Shown here: positions 249 through 9,427 of the stretch, one piece after another
Layout of the letters: each line of letters begins with the position of its first letter
How positions within the stretch are numbered: the first letter of the stretch is position 1
DNA from: a virus
Lineage: Duplodnaviria; Heunggongvirae; Uroviricota; Caudoviricetes
Virus record (IMG/VR): IMGVR_UViG_2563366799_000002
Direction: 5' to 3' (one strand)
DNA length: 9,427 nucleotides
Notes under the pieces: model-generated
Seen by the model: only the letters and a program-made list of their open reading frames with translations
What the model was told of the DNA's origin: nothing
Databases searched by the model: none
Program-made: the position numbers and the translations under genes

Positions 249-324
249 TAAGCTCCTGGGGATTCACTCGCTTGTCGCCTTCCTGCAACTCGAATTATTT
301 AGAGTATATCCATTTATTATCTTT

Positions 325-346
325 CTGCGCACTTCACGGTGCGCAG
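325..346. promoter_or_regulatory. Perfect 8-bp inverted repeat CTGCGCAC-N6-GTGCGCAG, 17 bp upstream of the ybhJ start
   Basis: Read directly: ctgcgcac ttcacg gtgcgcag at 325-346, followed by GGAG (352-355) and the ybhJ ATG at 363. It could be an operator or a 5' leader hairpin. No T-run follows, so an intrinsic terminator is unlikely. Confidence 0.3.
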
Positions 347-362
347 ATATCTGGAGCATTTG

Positions 363-2624
363 ATGATCAAGTTATCTGAAAAAGGCGTGTTTCTCGCCAG
401 TAATAACGAAATAATTGCCGAAGAACATTTCACCGGCGAAATTAAAAAAGAAGAAGCCCAAAAAGGCACTATTGCCTGGTCTATTCTCTCTTCTCATAAT
501 ACGTCCGGAAATATGGATAAACTTAAAATTAAGTTTGATTCATTAGCCTCTCACGATATTACCTTTGTTGGTATTGTACAGACCGCTAAAGCGTCCGGTA
601 TGGAACGTTTCCCGCTGCCGTATGTGCTGACCAACTGCCATAACTCACTTTGCGCCGTCGGCGGCACCATTAACGGTGATGACCATGTTTTTGGTTTATC
701 GGCGGCTCAGCGTTATGGCGGTATTTTTGTGCCTCCGCATATTGCGGTCATCCATCAATATATGCGTGAGATGATGGCAGGTGGCGGCAAAATGATCCTC
801 GGGTCAGACAGTCACACCCGTTACGGTGCATTAGGGACAATGGCAGTCGGTGAGGGCGGCGGCGAGTTGGTAAAACAATTGCTTAATGACACTTGGGATA
901 TCGACTATCCGGGAGTTGTTGCGGTGCATCTGACCGGAAAACCAGCGCCGTATGTGGGGCCGCAGGATGTGGCGCTGGCTATCATCGGTGCCGTGTTCAA
1001 AAACGGCTACGTCAAAAACAAAGTGATGGAATTCGTAGGTCCCGGCGTTGCTGCGCTCTCTACCGATTTCCGTAACAGCGTTGACGTTATGACCACTGAA
1101 ACGACCTGTTTAAGTTCTGTCTGGCAAACCGATGAAGAAGTCCATAACTGGCTGGCGCTCCACGGTCGCGGCCAGGATTACTGCCAGCTTAACCCTCAAC
1201 CGATGGCGTACTACGATGGCTGCATCAGCGTTGATTTAAGCGCCATCAAACCAATGATTGCGCTGCCGTTCCACCCGAGCAACGTGTATGAAATCGACAC
1301 GCTGAACCAGAACCTGACCGACATTCTGCGTGAGATTGAAATTGAGTCCGAGCGCGTGGCGCACGGTAAAGCCAAACTCTCGCTGCTGGATAAAGTGGAA
1401 AATGGTCGCCTGAAAGTGCAGCAGGGGATTATCGCGGGCTGTTCTGGCGGTAACTATGAAAACGTTATCGCCGCAGCAAATGCGCTGCGCGGTCAATCCT
1501 GTGGTAACGACACCTTCTCGCTGGCGGTTTACCCGTCATCACAGCCGGTGTTTATGGATCTCGCCAAAAAAGGTGTGGTAGCAGATTTGATTGGCGCAGG
1601 CGCAATCATCAGAACCGCGTTCTGCGGCCCATGCTTTGGCGCGGGCGATACGCCAATCAACAACGGTTTGAGTATTCGCCACACCACGCGTAACTTCCCG
1701 AATCGCGAAGGCTCTAAGCCAGCCAATGGGCAGATGTCAGCGGTGGCGTTGATGGACGCTCGTTCTATCGCTGCGACTGCGGCAAACGGTGGCTATTTAA
1801 CTTCTGCCAGCGAACTCGATTGCTGGGACAACGTGCCGGAGTACGCCTTCGATGTAACGCCGTATAAAAACCGTGTTTATCAGGGCTTTGTTAAAGGGGC
1901 AACTCAGCAACCGCTGATTTACGGACCGAACATTAAAGACTGGCCGGAATTAGGTGCGCTGACTGACAATATCGTCCTCAAAGTGTGCTCGAAGATCCTC
2001 GACGAAGTGACCACCACCGACGAACTGATCCCTTCCGGTGAAACCTCTTCTTATCGTTCAAATCCGATTGGTCTGGCGGAGTTTACCCTGTCACGCCGCG
2101 ATCCAGGTTATGTTGGCAGAAGTAAAGCGACTGCTGAGCTGGAAAATCAGCGTCTGGCGGGGAATGTCAGCGAGCTGACAGAGGTGTTTGCGCGCATTAA
2201 GCAGATTGCTGGTCAGGAGCATATTGATCCGCTGCAAACTGAAATTGGCAGCATGGTCTATGCGGTGAAACCAGGCGATGGTTCTGCGCGTGAACAGGCG
2301 GCGAGCTGCCAGCGTGTGATTGGCGGTCTGGCGAATATTGCCGAGGAGTACGCGACTAAACGCTACCGTTCTAACGTCATCAACTGGGGGATGTTACCGC
2401 TGCAGATGGCGGAAGTGCCAACCTTTGAAGTGGGGGATTACATTTACATCCCTGGCATTAAAGCGGCGCTGGATAATCCGGGTACGACGTTTAAAGGTTA
2501 TGTGATCCATGAAGATGCGCCGGTAACGGAAATTACGCTCTATATGGAAAGTCTGACTGCTGAAGAGCGCGAGATTATCAAGGCGGGTAGTTTGATTAAC
2601 TTCAATAAAAACCGTCAGATGTAA
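363..2624 (+). CDS. ybhJ: Aconitase-family protein YbhJ (putative hydratase/dehydratase)
   Basis: The long ORF 339..2624 matches E. coli YbhJ as I recall it from [31 protein letters not shown] onward, so the start is placed at the ATG at 363 (GGAG 7 nt upstream). Aconitase-type motifs are present (GSDSHT; CGPCFG Fe-S ligand region). Stop TAA at 2622-2624. Confidence 0.93.
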
Positions 2625-2629
2625 AAAGC

Positions 2630-2845
<216 letters not shown>

Positions 2846-2857
2846 AGTTAATAGCTC

Positions 2858-4141
2858 TTACTTCTTCGCCTCTGCAACCACTTTGCTACCCACGCCGCGA
2901 TTATTGTATTCCCACATGCGGTTGTAGTTAGTGTCATTCAGATTGCGCTGTATTTCGTCGCTATCGTCAACGCTGCCGGTATTACCCGCAAATGGACGAT
3001 TGGAAATCACCGCATCGCCCCACGGTTTAACCGTGTTAAAACCTTCGTTGATGGCGCTATCACGGATCACCACCTGACCGTTGGTATTGGCATCAACATC
3101 CAGCGAGCGGCCCAGTTGTGCCACGCCATCACCGGAAGCATTGAAACGGCTGTTTACGGCGAGGAAACCGTAATAGATGTTGGACAGCGTAGCCGGTGCA
3201 AACACATACGCTTCTTGCTGAGTACGTGAGTTCACCACGCGGAATTCGGTGTTATCGAACACCACTGCGCCGCGACCAGAAACGATATCCACATCCCCTT
3301 CAATATAGCTGTTGGTCACCAGCGTACGCGGCTGACGGTTGGTTTCCAGACGGTTCTGCACACCGCTGTTGGTGACAAAGAAGGTGTTCTGACGACCGAG
3401 AATGTTAACGTTGTTAATCTGTACCTGGTCACCATCAGTACGCAGTGCCACCGCCGGATGGTTACCTGCATCTACGCTATCGCCCAGCGTGTTTTCGATG
3501 GTCAGATTTTGCAGTTGCAGGCCATTGTTTTGTGACCAGAAGACCGCAGAGCAGAGAACACCGATACTGTCGCTGCGTTTGCTCTGGCAGCTATCGTACA
3601 TATACCACGCTGGTTTACCTGGCATATATTTGCCGCGCGGGTTGACGTCGTGACGCCAGTCGGTAGGGCTCATGCCACCATCAAGGGAAAGCCCAATCTT
3701 CACATCAATCGGTTTTTCACCTGTACCGTACAGAGTAATTCCACCCGGAGCGGCAGGGACATATACCGTTCCCTGATACTCACCAGGCATCACGGCAATA
3801 TACTGGCGCTTGTTGGTACGCTTGATAATTGCCGCATCTACCGCCGCCTGAATCGTGGTATGCGTTACACCTTGAGTGCCCGCCGGGCCGACAACAAATT
3901 CAGGTTGCGCAGGCAGGGTAATCGGGGAAGGATTCCACGCTGCAGCACCTGGTGTCAGGGATGCAAAATAGTGTTGAGCATCGAAATTCTGCGCTTCTTT
4001 TGCCGACAGAATCGGGCGAGAAGAGGTACCAGGCGCGGTTTGATCAGAAGGACGTTGATCGGGCGGGGTTGAGCTACAGGCGGTCAGCGTCACGCCAAAA
4101 GCCAATGCCAGCGCCAGACGGGAAACTGAAAATGTGTTCAC
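2858..4141 (-). CDS. ybhC: Outer-membrane lipoprotein YbhC (pectinesterase-fold, putative acyl-CoA thioesterase)
   Basis: 427-aa ORF with signal peptide and lipobox (MNTFSVSRLALALAFGVTLTAC SS), matching E. coli YbhC as I recall it. GTG start at 4141, stop TAA at 2858-2860. It is the gene that borders attB-lambda on the gal side. Confidence 0.93.
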   Translation of the reverse strand: MNTFSVSRLALALAFGVTLTACSSTPPDQRPSDQTAPGTSSRPILSAKEAQNFDAQHYFASLTPGAAAWNPSPITLPAQPEFVVGPAGTQGVTHTTIQAAVDAAIIKRTNKRQYIAVMPGEYQGTVYVPAAPGGITLYGTGEKPIDVKIGLSLDGGMSPTDWRHDVNPRGKYMPGKPAWYMYDSCQSKRSDSIGVLCSAVFWSQNNGLQLQNLTIENTLGDSVDAGNHPAVALRTDGDQVQINNVNILGRQNTFFVTNSGVQNRLETNRQPRTLVTNSYIEGDVDIVSGRGAVVFDNTEFRVVNSRTQQEAYVFAPATLSNIYYGFLAVNSRFNASGDGVAQLGRSLDVDANTNGQVVIRDSAINEGFNTVKPWGDAVISNRPFAGNTGSVDDSDEIQRNLNDTNYNRMWEYNNRGVGSKVVAEAKK

Positions 4142-4180
4142 AGGTTGCTCCGGGCTATGAAATAGAAAAATGAATCCGTT

Positions 4181-4280
4181 GAAGCCTGCTTTTTTATACT
4201 AAGTTGGCATTATAAAAAAGCATTGCTTATCAATTTGTTGCAACGAACAGGTCACTATCAGTCAAAATAAAATCATTATT
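4181..4280. other. Phage lambda attL (bacterial B arm - 15-bp core - phage P' arm)
   Basis: Core GCTTTTTTATACTAA at 4188-4202, with bacterial sequence to its left (tgaagcct) and the lambda P' arm to its right (gttggcattataaaaaagcattgcttatcaatttgttgcaacgaacaggtcactatcagtcaaaataaaatcattatttg). IHF H' site TATCAATTTGTTG at about 4227-4239. Int arm-type sites P'1 AGGTCACTAT (4249-4258), P'2 CAGTCAAAAT (4259-4268) and P'3 AAATCATTAT (4270-4279). Confidence 0.9.
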
Positions 4281-5346
4281 TGATTTCAATTTTGTCCCAC
4301 TCCCTGCCTCTGTCATCACGATACTGTGATGCCATGGTGTCCGACTTATGCCCGAGAAGATGTTGAGCAAACTTATCGCTTATCTGCTTCTCATAGAGTC
4401 TTGCAGACAAACTGCGCAACTCGTGAAAGGTAGGCGGATCCCCTTCGAAGGAAAGACCTGATGCTTTTCGTGCGCGCATAAAATACCTTGATACTGTGCC
4501 GGATGAAAGCGGTTCGCGACGAGTAGATGCAATTATGGTTTCTCCGCCAAGAATCTCTTTGCATTTATCAAGTGTTTCCTTCATTGATATTCCGAGAGCA
4601 TCAACATGCAATGCTGTTGGGATGGCAATTTTTACGCCTGTTTTGCTTTGCTCGACATAAAGATATCCATCTACGATATCAGACCACTTCATTTCGCATA
4701 AATCACCAACTCGTTGCCCGGTAACAACAGCCAGTTCCATTGCAAGTCTGAGCCAACATGGTGATGATTCTGCTGCTTGATAAATTTTCAGGTATTCGTC
4801 AGCCGTAAGTCTTGATCTCCTTACCTCTGATTTTGCTGCGCGAGTGGCAGCGACAGGGTTTGTTGTTATATGGCCTTCAGCTATTGCCTCTCGGAATGCA
4901 TCGCTCAGTGTTGATCTGATTAACTTGGCTGACGCCGCCTTGCCCTCGTTTATGTATCCATTGAGCATTGCCGCAATTTCTTTTGTGGTGATGTCTTCAA
5001 GTGGAGCATCAGGCAGACCCCTCCTTATTGCTTTAATTTTGCTCATGTAATTTATGAGTGTCTTCTGTTTGATTCCTCTGCTGGCCAGGATTTTTTCGTA
5101 GCGATCAAGCCATGAATGTAACGTAACGGAATTATCACTGTTGATTCTCGCTGTCAGAGGCTTGTGTTTGTGTCCTGAAAATAACTCAATGTTGGCCTGT
5201 ATAGCTTCAGTGATTGCGATTCGCCTGTCTCTGCCTAATCCAAACTCTTTACCCGTCCTTGGGTCCCTGTAGCAGTAATATCCATTGTTTCTTATATAAA
5301 GGTTAGGGGGTAAATCCCGGCGCTCATGACTTCGCCTTCTTCCCAT
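4276..5346 (-). CDS. int: Lambda-type integrase Int (tyrosine recombinase), apparently intact
   Basis: 356-aa ORF, 1071 nt, MGRRRSHERRDLPPNLYIRNNGYYCYRDPRTGKEF...QYRDDRGREWDKIEIK. Length, position relative to att and sequence match lambda Int as far as I can recall. The catalytic R..K..HxxR..H..Y context is present (HELRSL, GHKSDTMASQY). Confidence 0.95.
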   Translation of the reverse strand: MGRRRSHERRDLPPNLYIRNNGYYCYRDPRTGKEFGLGRDRRIAITEAIQANIELFSGHKHKPLTARINSDNSVTLHSWLDRYEKILASRGIKQKTLINYMSKIKAIRRGLPDAPLEDITTKEIAAMLNGYINEGKAASAKLIRSTLSDAFREAIAEGHITTNPVAATRAAKSEVRRSRLTADEYLKIYQAAESSPCWLRLAMELAVVTGQRVGDLCEMKWSDIVDGYLYVEQSKTGVKIAIPTALHVDALGISMKETLDKCKEILGGETIIASTRREPLSSGTVSRYFMRARKASGLSFEGDPPTFHELRSLSARLYEKQISDKFAQHLLGHKSDTMASQYRDDRGREWDKIEIK

Positions 5347-5542
5347 TTCTGATCCTCTTCAAAAGGCTACCTGTTACTGGTCGATTTAAGTCAACCTTTA
5401 CCGCTGATTCGTGGAACAGATACTCTCTTCCATCCTTAACCGGAGGAGGGAATATCCTGCATTCGCGCACCCATCGACGAACTGTTTCAAGGCTTCTTGG
5501 GCGTCGCTGGCGAGCGTTCCACTCCTGAAGTGTCAAGTACAT
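5324..5542 (-). CDS. xis: Lambda-type excisionase Xis
   Basis: 72-aa ORF MYLTLQEWNARQRRPRSLETVRRWVRECRIFPPPVKDGREYLFHESAVKVDLNRPVTGSLLKRIRNGKKAKS, matching lambda Xis. Its 3' end overlaps the int start by 23 nt as in lambda. Confidence 0.95.
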   Translation of the reverse strand: MYLTLQEWNARQRRPRSLETVRRWVRECRIFPPPVKDGREYLFHESAVKVDLNRPVTGSLLKRIRNGKKAKS

Positions 5543-5568
5543 CGCAAAGTCTCCGCAATTACACGCAA

Positions 5569-5592
5569 GAAAAAACCGCCATCAGGCGGCTT
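5569..5592 (-). terminator. Candidate intrinsic terminator hairpin (minus strand) between orf55 and xis
   Basis: Minus-strand reading AAG CCGCC TGAT GGCGG TTTTTTT: a 5-bp GC stem with 4-nt loop followed by a 7-T run. The stop codon of orf55 (TGA) sits in the loop. The stem is short, so its strength is uncertain. Confidence 0.45.
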
Positions 5593-5749
5593 GGTGTTCT
5601 TTCAGTTCTTCAATTCGAATATTGGTTACGTCTGCATGTGCTATCTGCGCCCACAGCATCCAGTGGTCATAGCAGTCGCTGATGTTCTCGGCTTCGATAA
5701 CTCTGTTGAATGGTTCTCCATTCCATTCACCTGTAACTCGGAAGTGCAT
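5582..5749 (-). CDS. Small lambda ORF (orf55-like hypothetical protein, 55 aa)
   Basis: Not in the ORF track (below its length cutoff). My own translation of the minus strand: MHFRVTGEWNGEPFNRVIEAENISDCYDHWMLWAQIAHADVTNIRIEELKEHQAA*. The 168-nt length and the 39-nt gap to xis match the small hypothetical ORF that follows xis in lambda, as I recall the map. Confidence 0.6.
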   Translation of the reverse strand: MHFRVTGEWNGEPFNRVIEAENISDCYDHWMLWAQIAHADVTNIRIEELKEHQAA

Positions 5750-5752
5750 TTA

Positions 5753-6226
5753 TCATCGCCATAAAACAAAACTCGCCGTAGCGAGTTCAGATAAACCATC
5801 CGGAATTACCGGAGAGTTGCCGGGTTCTTTAATGTGCAAGCGAGGCTCACCATCTTTTGGTTCAGGCCACTGGCGCTCCATGTTGATCTTCAATTTATCT
5901 TCCATAGCAGCGGTAATTTCAGCATCGCTGATGCCAGCACGGCGCTGTGCATCCCACAACAGGAAATGCATATCAGCCCACTCGCTGAGATCGTCTGGTT
6001 CGGCTGCGGCTTCCAGAGCCTCTTTTGAGAGGTGTTTCAGTGGACCAATGGGGCCAACGCAGCCAAATGTGGAGTCAGACCATTTGGCATGCTCGTGGCG
6101 AATCAGTTCGCGTTCCAGTGATGCCAGTGCAATTCGTGCCAGTTCCATTTGTTCGCCACGAGTAAGCCCGTTTTCAAGCGGATTTTTAATGAACAATTCA
6201 ATACGTTCTTTGGTAATAGTGGTCAT
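5753..6226 (-). CDS. Phage protein with MazG/HisE-like nucleotide pyrophosphohydrolase motif (157 aa); not a lambda gene
   Basis: ORF with an AGGA ribosome-binding site 7-8 nt upstream of its ATG and a stop 3 nt before the orf55 start. It contains the E-x2-E...E-x2-D pattern (KEALEAAAE...SEWADMHFLLW) typical of all-alpha NTP pyrophosphohydrolases. It occupies the position where lambda carries ea8.5/ea22 but does not resemble them. The function is a motif-based inference. Confidence 0.6.
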   Translation of the reverse strand: MTTITKERIELFIKNPLENGLTRGEQMELARIALASLERELIRHEHAKWSDSTFGCVGPIGPLKHLSKEALEAAAEPDDLSEWADMHFLLWDAQRRAGISDAEITAAMEDKLKINMERQWPEPKDGEPRLHIKEPGNSPVIPDGLSELATASFVLWR

Positions 6227-6236
6227 TTGTTAGTCC

Positions 6237-6517
6237 TTAAACTGCTAGTTGCAATTGCATTTCAAAGCGGTCGCGTTGTTCACAATACGCAAGAGAACCA
6301 GGGCTATTGTGTGCCTCAATCCGTTCTACCATTAATGCTGCGCGTGTCTCTTTACTTGCAGGTGCATAAGCCCCAGACCAGGCTTTATCAATACCGATGT
6401 TTCGAGCGACGTTCGTACTATCTGCGCTGGCTAAGGGTAATTTTGTGAATATCAGCGGATTTAACATGCGCAATCCATGTAGTTTCGTAACCGGCTGCCA
6501 GAAAAATGCATTCCGTG
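6237..6517 (-). pseudogene. Possible 3' remnant of an unknown gene in the non-lambda substitution
   Basis: Of the three minus-strand frames across the non-lambda segment, only one stays open from the exo junction (about 6517) to a TAA at 6237, just upstream of the next gene's ribosome-binding site ([93 protein letters not shown]). An internal ATG at 6473 would give the 78-aa ORF in the track. No family recognised. Confidence 0.3.
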
Positions 6518-6895
6518 GTTGCCGTCACTGCATAAACCATCGGGAGAGCAGGCGGTGCGCATACTTTCGTCGCGATAGATGATCGGGGATTCAGTAACAT
6601 TAACGCCGGAAGTGAACTCAAAGAGGGTTCTGGCGTCGTTCTCGTACTGTTTTCCCCAGGCCAGCGCCTTAGCGTTAACTTCCGGAGCCACACCGGTGCA
6701 AACCTCAGCAAGCAGGGTGTGGAAGTAGGACATTTTCATGTCAGGCCACTTCTTTCCTGAGCGGGGCTTTGCTATCACGTTGTGAACTTCTGAAGCGGTG
6801 ATGACGCCGAGCCGTAATTTGTGCCATGCATCATCCCCCTGTTCGACAGCTCTCACGTCGATCCCGGTACGCTGCAGGATAATGTCCGGTGTCAT
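6461..6895 (-). pseudogene. exo: Lambda exonuclease (Red alpha / Exo), truncated after codon 126 with an 18-codon foreign tail
   Basis: Residues 1-126 ([22 protein letters not shown]...[15 protein letters not shown]) match lambda Exo. After GACGGCAAC (about 6518) the sequence diverges and reads [18 protein letters not shown] instead of GLELKCPFTSRDF.... The C-terminal 100 residues of the 226-aa protein are absent, including the region I recall as carrying catalytic E129/K131. Confidence 0.85.
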
Positions 6896-7677
6896 GCTGC
6901 CACCTTCTGCTCAGTGGCTTTCTGTTTCAGGAATCCAAGAGCTTTCACTGCTTCGGCCTGTGTCAGTTCTGACGATGCTCGAATGTCGCGGCGAAATATC
7001 TGGGAACAGAGCGGCAATAAGTCGTCATCCCATGTTTTATCCAGGGCGATCAGCAGAGTGTTAATCTCCTGCATGGTTTCATCGTTAACCGGAGTGATAT
7101 CGCGTTCCGGCTGACGTTCTGCAGTGTATGCGGTATTTTCGACAATGCGCTCGGCTTCATCCTTGTCATAGATACCAGCAAATCCGAAGGCGAGACGGGC
7201 ACACTGAATCATGGCTTTATGCCGTAACATCCGTTTGGGATGCGACTGCCACGGCCCCGTGATTTCTCTGCCTTCGCGGGTTTTGAATGGTTCGCGGCGG
7301 CATTCATCCATCCATTCGGTAACGCAGATCGGATGATTGCGGTCCTTGCGGTAAATCCGGCATGTACAGGATTCATTGTCCTGCTCAAAGTCCATGCCAT
7401 CAAACTGCTGGTTTTCATTGATGATGCGGGACCAGCCATCAACGCCCACCACCGGAACGATGCCGTTCTGCTTGTCAGGAAAGGCGTAAATTTCTTTCGT
7501 CCACGGATTAAGGCCGTACTGGTTGGCGACGATCAGCAATGCGATGAACTGCGCATCGCTGGCATCGCCTTTAAATGCCGTCTGGCGAAGAGTGGTGATC
7601 AGTTCCTGTGGGTCGACAGAATCCATGCCGACACGTTCAGCCAGCTTCCCTGCCAGCGTTGCGAGTGCTGTACTCAT
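6892..7677 (-). CDS. bet: Lambda Red beta (Bet) single-strand annealing protein, full length
   Basis: 261-aa [69 protein letters not shown]...KATEQKVAA, matching lambda Bet. Its stop overlaps the exo ATG (ATGA) as in lambda. Confidence 0.95.
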
Positions 7678-7682
7678 CCGTT

Positions 7683-7793
7683 TTATACCTCTGAATCAAT
7701 ATCAACCTGGTGGTGAGCAATGGTTTCAACCATGTACCGGATGTGTTCTGCCATGCGCTCCTGAAACTCAACATCGTCATCAAACGCACGGGT
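7683..7793 (-). pseudogene. gam: Lambda gam, 3' remnant only (last ~35 codons)
   Basis: Minus-strand translation ...[36 protein letters not shown] equals the Gam C-terminus and lies 5 nt from the bet start as in lambda. Upstream of about 7794 the frame reads ...[12 protein letters not shown] and hits a stop, so there is no Gam N-terminus. Confidence 0.8.
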
Positions 7794-7822
7794 ATCTGGC
7801 TGAAAGAGGGGGTTATTAAGGC

Positions 7823-8185
7823 GTGAATACCTACAGCATCACATTACCCTGGCCTCCGAGCAATAATCGCTATTACCGCCATAATCGCGGACGCACGCAC
7901 ATCAGCGCAGAGGGGCAGGCATACCGCGATAACGTCGCCCGAATCATTAAAAACGCAATGCTAGATATCGGCCTGGCTATGCCTGTGAAAATCCGCATTG
8001 AGTGCCACATGCCGGATCGCCGTCGCCGTGACCTGGATAATCTGCAAAAAGCCGCTTTTGACGCACTCACTAAAGCAGGTTTCTGGCTGGATGATGCTCA
8101 GGTCGTTGATTACCGCGTTGTGAAGATGCCTGTTACCAAAGGTGGGAGGCTGGAACTGACCATCACCGAAATGGGGAATGAATGA
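7823..8185 (+). CDS. rusA: Holliday-junction resolvase RusA (lambdoid nin-region type)
   Basis: 120-aa ORF (GTG start) [26 protein letters not shown]...[12 protein letters not shown], matching the DLP12 RusA of E. coli as I recall it. Confidence 0.9.
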
Positions 8186-8322
8186 TGTTTGAGTTTAATA
8201 TGGCAGAACTTCTTCGCCACCGCTGGGGGCGTCTGCGCTTATATCGTTTCCCCGGTTCTGTTTTGACCGATTACCGAATACTGAAGAATTACGCCAAAAC
8301 ACTGACAGGAGCAGGAGTATGA
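8182..8322 (+). CDS. ylcG: Small ORF YlcG-like (46 aa) between rusA and Q
   Basis: My own translation: [46 protein letters not shown]. The start overlaps the rusA stop (ATGA). It corresponds to the small ylcG ORF between rusA and quuD in DLP12. Below the ORF-track cutoff. Confidence 0.55.
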
Positions 8323-8407
8323 AGTCAGAGATAACAATCAACTAATACTGTTTTGTTGATTTTTGCTTGTAATTGGCGTTCTGGTCTGAGTTTTGTGGAG
8401 TAAGTTG

Positions 8408-8785
8408 ATGCGTGATATTCAGATGGTTCTTGAGCGTTGGGGAGCGTGGGCGGCTAATAATCATGAAGATGTGACCTGGTCGTCCATTGCCGCCGGTTTT
8501 AAGGGATTAATTCCTTCAAAAGTAAAATCTCGCCCACAATGTTGTGACGATGACGCGATGATCATTTGCGGGTGCATGGCCCGTCTGAAAAAGAACAACA
8601 GCGATTTGCATGATTTATTGGTGGACTATTATGTCGGCGGCATGACTTTTATGGCGCTTGCACGTAAGCATGGGCGATCTGATTGTTGGGTTGGCAGGAT
8701 GCTTCAGAAAGCTGAGGGCGTAGTGGAGGGTATGCTGATGGTGTTGGTTCTCCGATTGGAGATGGATGCTGATTGTTCGAAATAA
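8408..8785 (+). CDS. Late-gene antiterminator Q (phage 82 / DLP12 QuuD type)
   Basis: [65 protein letters not shown]... with cysteine cluster. The start is placed at the ATG at 8408 (GGAG 8 nt upstream) rather than the TTG used by the ORF track. It follows rusA-ylcG as in DLP12. Confidence 0.85.
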
Positions 8786-8883
8786 TTAAAGGAAAAGTTG
8801 CTGTCTGATTGTCATTAGTCTAACATTTTAAATGTTGGAATCGCAACGTAGTTATTATCATATAACAGCTTGTTTCCTGATTT
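8786..8883 (+). promoter_or_regulatory. Candidate Q-dependent late promoter region (pR'-like) downstream of Q
   Basis: AT-rich 100 bp directly after Q, where lambdoid phages carry pR' and the Q-utilisation site. Possible hexamers: TTGCTG (8798-8803), 17 bp, TAACAT (8821-8826); or TTGGAA (8835-8840) with TATCAT (8856-8861). The assignment is positional and not certain. Confidence 0.35.
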
Positions 8884-8912
8884 AGCCAGCCTCCCCAAAG
8901 GCTGGTTTTTTT
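8884..8912 (+). terminator. Intrinsic terminator (tR'-like) on the plus strand
   Basis: AGCCAGCC tccccaaa GGCTGG followed by TTTTTTT (8906-8912): a GC-rich stem-loop with a U-run in the plus orientation only. Confidence 0.6.
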
Positions 8913-8940
8913 CTAATAAGTATTATTTCGGGTAGGGATT

Positions 8941-9145
8941 TTATTGTTTAACCCATAATAATTCATTGACATTGAATCCCAACTTTTGAGCGGTTCGCAC
9001 ATAGTCTGCTTTTACTTTATCTGGAATAGTTGGGGTCCTTGCCAGAATCCATAGGTATTCTCTGTTCGGACCACTGACAAGAGCATACTTATACTCATCA
9101 TCCAGTTTGATTACATTATAGCCACCATAGAAGGGGCCAAAAAAC
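8941..9145 (-). pseudogene. Bacterial lipocalin (Blc-family) gene, C-terminal ~68 codons only; 5' part removed by the IS1 insertion
   Basis: Minus-strand translation ...LPFFGPFYGGYNVIKLDDEYKYALVSGPNREYLWILARTPTIPDKVKADYVRTAQKLGFNVNELLWVKQ* aligns with the C-terminal third of E. coli Blc (SFFGPFYGGYNVIALDREYRHALVCGPDRDYLWILSRTPTISDEV...FIWVQQ, from memory) but is clearly divergent. The frame runs straight into the IS1 terminal repeat at 9146. The M in the ORF track is a TTG inside IS1. The segment is visibly AT-rich. Confidence 0.75.
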
Positions 9146-9427
9146 GGTAATGACTCCAACTTATTGATAGTGTTTTATGTTCAGATAATGCCCGATGACT
9201 TTGTCATGCAGCTCCACCGATTTTGAGAACGACAGCGACTTCCGTCCCAGCCGTGCCAGGTGCTGCCTCAGATTCAGGTTATGCCGCTCAATTCGCTGCG
9301 TATATCGCTTGCTGATTACGCGAAGCTTTCCCTTCAGGCGGGATTCATACAGCGGCCAGCCATCCGTCATCCATATCACCACGTCAAAGGGTGACAGCAG
9401 GCTCATAAGACGCCCCAGCGTCGCCAT
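9146..9427 (-). mobile_element. IS1 insertion sequence, terminal 282 bp (element continues beyond window end)
   Basis: GGTAATGACTCCAACTTATTGATAGTGT at 9146 onward is the IS1 terminal inverted repeat, followed by the insB 3' coding sequence. Confidence 0.9.
9161..9427 (-). CDS. insB: IS1 transposase InsB (InsAB'), C-terminal 88 codons (partial)
   Basis: Minus-strand [91 protein letters not shown] is the IS1 InsB C-terminus. The gene runs off the window edge. Confidence 0.9.

Follow-up and report, generated by a model that had tools for sequence, protein, structure and literature searches.

A 7.1-kb internal deletion fuses gam to ybcO in a decaying lambda-like prophage and uses a gam breakpoint shared with other junctions

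The stretch of DNA analysed here (the window, 9,427 nucleotides) is a piece of the Escherichia coli chromosome at the lambda attachment site, carrying a decaying lambda-like prophage. Its features are as follows.

1–248: IS5 end, recognised from sequence.
339–2624, plus strand: ybhJ, from annotated matches in 1,194 complete genomes.
2858–4141, minus strand: ybhC, from annotated matches in 1,194 complete genomes.
4276–5346, minus strand: lambda-type integrase, 356 aa, with an Arm-DNA-bind_1 domain (Pfam).
5324–5542, minus strand: excisionase (Pfam).
5753–6226, minus strand: dATP/dGTP pyrophosphohydrolase gene (Pfam).
6461–6895, minus strand: exo', truncated lambda exonuclease gene, 144-aa ORF (Pfam YqaJ, positions 2–104 of 150).
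6892–7677, minus strand: bet, intact, RecT-family single-strand annealing protein of 261 aa (Pfam RecT, 2.7e-33).
7683–7794, minus strand: gam', 3' remnant of 36 codons plus the stop and 1 nt (alignment and Pfam).
7710–7826, plus strand: chimeric 38-aa ORF with a GTG start (ORF list).
7781–7801: zone of patchy parental similarity around the crossover (alignment).
7793–7794: crossover TA dinucleotide, common to both parents (three-way alignment with strain ET490).
7795–7826, plus strand: ybcO' (DUF1364), final 32 bp including the TGA stop at 7824–7826 (ET490 annotation mapped onto the window).
7823–8185, plus strand: rusA, intact Holliday-junction resolvase gene, 120 aa, GTG start (Pfam PF05866, 6.4e-23).
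8182–8322, plus strand: ylcG, 46 aa (annotation under the match; PF26818 in relatives).
8393–8785, plus strand: Q-family antiterminator gene (Pfam Phage_antitermQ, 2e-50; annotated as 125 aa in relatives).
8941–9427: lipocalin gene fragment just past Q, and the IS1 that cuts it (9147–9427) (annotated match).

The Bet protein has an identical copy listed in 72,617 blocks of an assembly collection. RusA covers positions 1–123 of 124 in PF05866, a full-length domain; the gene call agrees with the RefSeq annotation in ET490 and many other genomes. The exo' ORF is composite, in that about 126 leading codons derive from exo and the remainder is read-through beyond a second deletion junction at ~6518; exo in ET490 encodes 226 aa, against 144 in the window. 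Exact copies of the 144-aa protein occur on 92 contigs, which their sources label E. coli. Upstream of ybhJ, a human gut metagenome contig with the same prophage (L002) carries in its final 50 bases an IS5-like end in the opposite orientation and ~50 bp further in, at TTAG (window 297–300), where ET490 is without IS5. The IS5 ends of the window and L002 look like two independent insertions.

A sequence-only reading of this DNA had placed gam homology from 7683 to an abrupt end at about 7793, and alignment now fixes that end at 7794. Compared with the intact bet-gam of ET490, the gam side is identical by sensitive alignment at 95 of 95 positions through 7794, where the match stops, while the ybcO-rusA side matches the ET490 prophage at 110 of 111 positions from 7790, with its sole mismatch at 7792. 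By megablast, exo-bet-gam homology to phage genomes reaches 7801 and ybcO-rusA homology to E. coli begins at 7783; the two flank alignments overlap by 19 bp (7783–7801) because the parents share patchy similarity, not identity, across this interval. At the crossover gam reads AACGCACGGGTA-ATGGCT and ybcO reads AACACA-GGTTATCTGGCT, and the product is CACGGG-TA-TCTGGCT. Since G7792 is specific to gam and T7795 to ybcO, the crossover lies within the TA at 7793–7794. Microhomology, which the sequence-only reading had proposed to look for, is present at the breakpoint as this TA, an exact match embedded in patchy similarity of ~14 of 19 positions.

What remains of gam does not encode a functional protein. 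The Gam profile PF06064 is matched at positions 63–98 of 98 only (E 5e-20), and translation of the minus strand from 7826 to 7683 yields 11 residues followed by 36, of which only the final 36 match Pfam Gam. Both the full-length domain and the start codon are absent, no ORF of at least 30 aa exists in the gam' frame, and the single internal ATG, the only start codon present, would yield 23 aa. About 80 bp into the retained remnant, the plus-strand sequence CCTGGTGG (7706–7713) matches 7 of the 8 positions of the Chi octamer GCTGGTGG.

The rusA GTG follows the end of gam homology by exactly 28 bp (7795–7822), close to the 30 bp first estimated. That estimate had also been taken as the spacer between bet and rusA, which is in fact 145 bp from the bet ATG (7677) to the rusA GTG (7823) and comprises 5 bp of intergenic DNA, the 112-bp gam remnant and 28 bp of ybcO remnant. 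The ybcO TGA stop overlaps the rusA GTG start. The 38-aa chimeric ORF reads antisense through gam', enters the ybcO frame and terminates at the ybcO stop codon, overlapping the start of rusA; nothing in the sequence points to its expression.

Two mechanisms of junction formation were rejected on the local sequence. IS-mediated adjacent deletion fails as there is no insertion-sequence end at the junction; gam' abuts ybcO' directly, with no insertion-sequence or foreign DNA in between, and the nearest insertion sequences are the IS5 at 1–248 and the IS1 at 9147–9427. For Int recombination at a secondary att site, we took the att core to be GCTTTTTTATACTAA. Intact gam has GCTTTTTT beginning 5 bp to the right of the breakpoint, and the product retains the ybcO-specific TC right after the TA, which places the crossover outside the T run and excludes this route.

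To define what was lost, we used the closest undeleted relative, E. coli ET490 (NZ_CP100947.1), as the reference. The ET490 prophage is the same element and likewise lies by ybhC, in the order ybhJ-ybhC-int-xis...exo-bet-gam. The window flanks are collinear with it and in the same orientation (window 6518–7801 at 99.6% identity and 7783–9427 at 99.7%), and in ET490 they are separated by 7,135 bp that are missing from the window. This bears out the earlier proposal that a single junction stands in place of everything from mid-gam through the nin region, and the gene content of ET490 likewise sustains the claim that the whole control and replication core has gone. The left part of the missing interval holds the first 185 bp of gam, a kil-type division inhibitor gene and an S24-peptidase repressor gene; its control genes further include a cro-position HTH gene and a YdaT-domain gene; its replication genes are O and P, with a degenerate ren (ren') and three further ORFs; and its right part holds ybcN, ninE and all of ybcO except the final 32 bp. 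The junction is confirmed as a real, base-precise internal prophage deletion of 7.1 kb.

We searched for carriers of the junction with an exact 25-mer spanning it. Two contigs from human gut metagenomes contain the 25-mer, namely L002 (99.9% identical over 8.9 kb) and L003, as do 6 of the 8 contexts retrieved through the exo' protein (L004–L008 and L010, from NCBI and ENA assemblies); L004, a scaffold of GCA_000408645.1, is 100% identical to window 461–9427. Such recurrence in at least eight independent assemblies or metagenomes indicates that the junction is no one-off artefact. A search of 5,426 complete E. coli genomes did not find it, which implies a low population frequency or restriction to certain lineages. 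The species-representative genomes contained no match to the junction 32-mer or to a degenerate pattern, and a plasmid collection did not contain the junction.

These data bear on the possibility that no deletion took place, and that gam is instead frameshifted or diverged, or the contig an assembly chimera. Alignment at the DNA level rules out a frameshift: from 7795 onward the window is 100% identical to ybcO-rusA, gam continues in no other frame, and the rusA side is not lambda gam-side sequence, so both findings that the sequence-only reading had said would overturn it did not materialise. A chimera is contradicted by the at least eight independent assemblies or metagenomes, and the parents share only 2 bp at the crossover, far too few to mislead a k-mer assembler. 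We consider this explanation refuted, its probability being negligible.

The carriers differ in ways that inform the history of the deletion. Downstream of Q, one type has the IS1-truncated cargo seen in the window; L010 (824–3582) has a full lipocalin-DUF523/DUF1722-AraC cargo followed by a holin gene; and L005 (734–3915) has a different Q allele followed by porin-holin-lysozyme-Rz-Bor. In L007 the prophage is identical save for 1 SNP, while ybhJ/ybhC differ at 76 positions, or ~2.5% (window 461–4141); either this remnant or the DNA beside it has passed from one host background to another through recombination. Taken together, the differing right arms and the L007 host flank indicate that the deletion is older than these differences and has been inherited, moved by recombination, or both. 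L003 is distinct, carrying the window junction on a bet haplotype like that of two contigs described below (L132 and L065), at a contig coverage of 1.7x. The best match to its rusA allele in complete E. coli genomes is 94% over 83% of the query, and its ends (1–173 and 1411–1460) match nothing among the sequences compared. L003 could be a second occurrence of the junction or a recombinant, and it may also be chimeric or derive from another enterobacterium.

A different origin for the junction is recombination between the att-lambda prophage and DLP12 at argU, which would imply a large chromosomal rearrangement. The sequence-only reading had named DLP12 as the comparison for the ybcO-rusA junction, and ybcO-rusA-ylcG-Q is indeed the classic DLP12 gene order. 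Exchange between prophages is also known in this family, as one contig (L009) has an att-lambda left arm and, from the exo/bet boundary onward, matches the DLP12-like contig L132. The rusA module is nonetheless the right arm of the same att-lambda prophage. ET490 and its relatives hold the same rusA-ylcG-Q-lipocalin'-IS1 block, 99.7% identical and in the same orientation, 7.1 kb from gam and inside the prophage by ybhC, and relatives continue from it into Q, cargo and lysis genes. The window integrase is moreover of the 356-aa lambda type, not the 387-aa DLP12-like type of L132, and a simple internal deletion accounts for everything. The DLP12 explanation is largely refuted by ET490, and we judge it very improbable.

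This prophage carries at least four internal deletions, the one at the gam'-ybcO' junction among them. Relative to ET490, the window has lost 805 bp at a 6-bp GATAAA repeat (window 5790–5795), as well as 1,487 bp (at approximately GCTG) and 650 bp (at GTTG) on either side of a 31-bp island at 6491–6521. The latter two deletions truncate exo to the 144-aa ORF, and the exo junction is absent from complete E. coli genomes. These three further microhomology scars support a microhomology-associated origin for the gam'-ybcO' deletion as well.

The position of the breakpoint within gam recurs. Three junction types break gam within 1 bp of one another (window 7793–7795). In the iteron type, seen in L009 (reverse complement ~5428), gam' ends GGGTAA, 1 bp from the window breakpoint, and is joined to the third origin iteron inside O (repeats of TTTACCCGAATCAGGTAAA), with a GGTAA overlap and 3,222 bp deleted. 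L009 was retrieved through the exo' protein and is without the window junction. The iteron junction also occurs in the IMG/VR contig L132 (reverse complement ~7642), which is DLP12-like, with a 387-aa integrase ORF, ybcK, intact exo, P and an ORF homologous to the 508-aa large serine recombinase ORF of L065. L065 itself, found with a search pattern ending at the gam site, has the third type: at 2532 gam' ends GGGTA and gives way, across a CGGGTA overlap, to sequence from inside IS2 orfB, the IS2 matches beginning exactly at the junction at 100% identity and being followed by ybcK-ybcL-ybcM-ybcN. Neither the iteron nor the IS2 junction is present in complete E. coli genomes.

Haplotypes of bet-gam' separate the first two types. 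The window and L132 differ at 20 of 900 positions, and both haplotypes recur almost unchanged in relatives whose gam is intact: in ET490 and L110, with 2 of 900 differences from the window, and in L102, with 0 of 900 from L132. L132 and L102 also share a T SNP 9 bp from the junction that is missing in the window. The window and iteron types are therefore independent events, and the haplotypes together with the T/C SNP rule out that the window junction was derived from the gam'-iteron one in a later step. L009 was rejected as an independent example within the exo' lineage. Over 4.5 kb its att-lambda left arm differs from the window by only 2 SNPs, but rightward of the exo/bet boundary (the bet-gam'-O'-P arm) it is 99.6% identical to L132. 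This identifies it as an inter-prophage recombinant rather than a separate case, and shows that lambdoid prophages resident in one host exchange DNA. L065 may be independent or may be a secondary deletion of the iteron type. The gam spot is the breakpoint of at least one, and probably two, other independent deletions.

Reuse of the gam breakpoint is real, and the quality of the homology does not explain it. As a control we scored 24-mers across exo-gam-kil, any of which can be paired with a sequence in the 6.8 kb downstream at a score of 10 +/- 1, whereas the real junction pairs score only 7 and 9; exceptional homology was accordingly rejected as the cause of site choice. In view of this reuse, a wholly random illegitimate event may not account for everything, and the alternative is that deletions begin preferentially at the gam site (…CACGGGTA|ATGGC…), with short homology guiding only the choice of partner. 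Initiation could be a site-specific break, a replication pause or a recombinase pseudo-site; any of these would refine how the deletion formed while leaving the deletion itself in place. In addition to the three types within 1 bp, the independence of two of them on distinct haplotypes and the failure of homology to account for the site, this alternative draws on the surrounding sequence. In 120 IMG/VR loci that share the 23 bases on the left of the site, the 185 bp of gam on its right contain no further breakpoint and show only one T-run length variant, and complete IMG/VR scans found no junction at offsets -2, -1, +2 or +3, the +2 hits being SNP alleles of intact gam. Set against this, there are only three types, the third came from a pattern ending at the site and is possibly secondary to the iteron type, and truncated or chimeric Gam proteins with other breakpoints (residues ~8, ~21 and ~81, among the best 120 of 382 hits) show that the site is not exclusive. 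The sole local structure is a hairpin, AACGCACGGG / CCCGTG(G)CGTT, with a 10-bp bulged stem and a 19-nt loop whose stem-loop boundary lies at the breakpoint; its predicted folding does not surpass that of shuffled sequence (z = -1.2), and it was rejected as the cause. The target of a site-specific recombinase, for example the large serine recombinase YbcK, would have dyad-symmetric half-sites about a central dinucleotide that the partner sites share. A common TA could serve as the crossover point in all three junction types, and their partners share a loose GG-TA-(W)NGGC pattern. Inspection by eye shows no dyad symmetry of this kind, and the similarity scores stay within background. Literature searches returned nothing informative on a published hotspot in gam. 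On balance, we regard a preferred initiation point as possible rather than probable.

A stronger form of this idea, which we think somewhat unlikely, is that gam codons 61/62 (…CACGGGTA|ATGGCTTTTTTG…) are a genuine fragile site, favoured as the starting point of deletions that disarm lambdoid prophages. There, perhaps where stem meets loop in the small hairpin, a fixed DNA end or pause would arise and be joined to any downstream sequence offering GGTA-type microhomology; a topoisomerase site or an origin-protein half-site could serve the same role. TTACCCG, on the coding strand at the gam site, matches the left half of this phage's iterons. Were the site fragile in this sense, the route to a harmless prophage would be partly pre-set by sequence. 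For now, breakpoint reuse is a modest curiosity.

Our overall account, which we hold with high confidence, is one microhomology-associated deletion in an att-lambda prophage, part of ordinary decay, that likely leaves bet and rusA silent. In this account, a single deletion, probably intramolecular, illegitimate and homology-independent, joined the 112 bp at the 3' end of gam to the terminal 32 bp of ybcO, and the 2-bp overlap within patchy similarity would be the signature of RecA-independent short-homology illegitimate recombination. The event took out both early promoter/operator regions, the repressor, cro and the cII-position gene, together with O, P, the origin, kil and most of the nin region. 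Loss of the repressor, early promoters, origin, O, P and kil makes the prophage non-inducible, non-replicating and non-killing, as follows from established lambda biology, and the deletion may have carried a selective advantage. It is a step in ordinary prophage decay, later inherited and spread among E. coli lineages.

The intact bet and rusA-ylcG-Q ORFs would have lost the promoters that normally drive them, and through that loss they are most likely silent unless transcribed from outside, as is known for rusA in K-12. A crude consensus scan found no promoter-like site in 7678–7822, and its one weak site, inside rusA, equals shuffle expectation. By analogy with the quiescent K-12 gene, rusA in the window is probably silent.

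The junction is textbook prophage decay and alters no concept. It shows, to the base, the one-step conversion of an inducible lambda-like prophage into a harmless remnant, and it offers a naturally occurring rusA allele stripped of nearly all its original upstream sequence, a useful object for asking if remnants of this kind are really silent. Its novelty is modest and lies in the recurrent gam breakpoint; if confirmed, that reuse would point to a sequence-determined weak spot in the lambdoid red-gam region.

Defective or 'grounded' lambdoid prophages arising from internal deletions are a well-known class (review PMC6379469). The window element resembles DLP12, Rac and Qin in having lost immunity, replication and lethal genes while keeping scattered intact ones (recombination, Q, cargo), in the insertion sequences at its edges, and in its spread by vertical inheritance and recombination. 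It differs in lying at the lambda attachment site by ybhC rather than at argU, ttcA or ydfJ, in its lambda-type integrase, and in a gam'-ybcO' junction found in none of the 5,426 complete E. coli genomes. Identity with DLP12 itself was rejected, given the flanking ybhJ-ybhC and the 356-aa integrase with its lambda arm-binding domain.

A second parallel is the rusA of K-12, which is quiescent until IS2 or IS10 inserts upstream, yielding the rus suppressors of ruv (PMC1636454). The DLP12 copy in K-12 and the window share an intact rusA cut off from its early promoter, the same ybcO-rusA-ylcG-Q order and the same stop/start overlap. In the window, however, only 32 bp of ybcO lie upstream, followed by antisense gam and bet and no nin region, and there is no upstream insertion sequence or promoter-like site.

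The junction itself most resembles the joints recovered in the lambda Spi- / lambda bio assay for short-homology-dependent illegitimate recombination (PMC5823372), with a few bp of identity in patchy similarity and one end in the red-gam region. Whereas those joints link phage to bacterial DNA under laboratory selection, the window carries a natural intra-prophage deletion that keeps bet.
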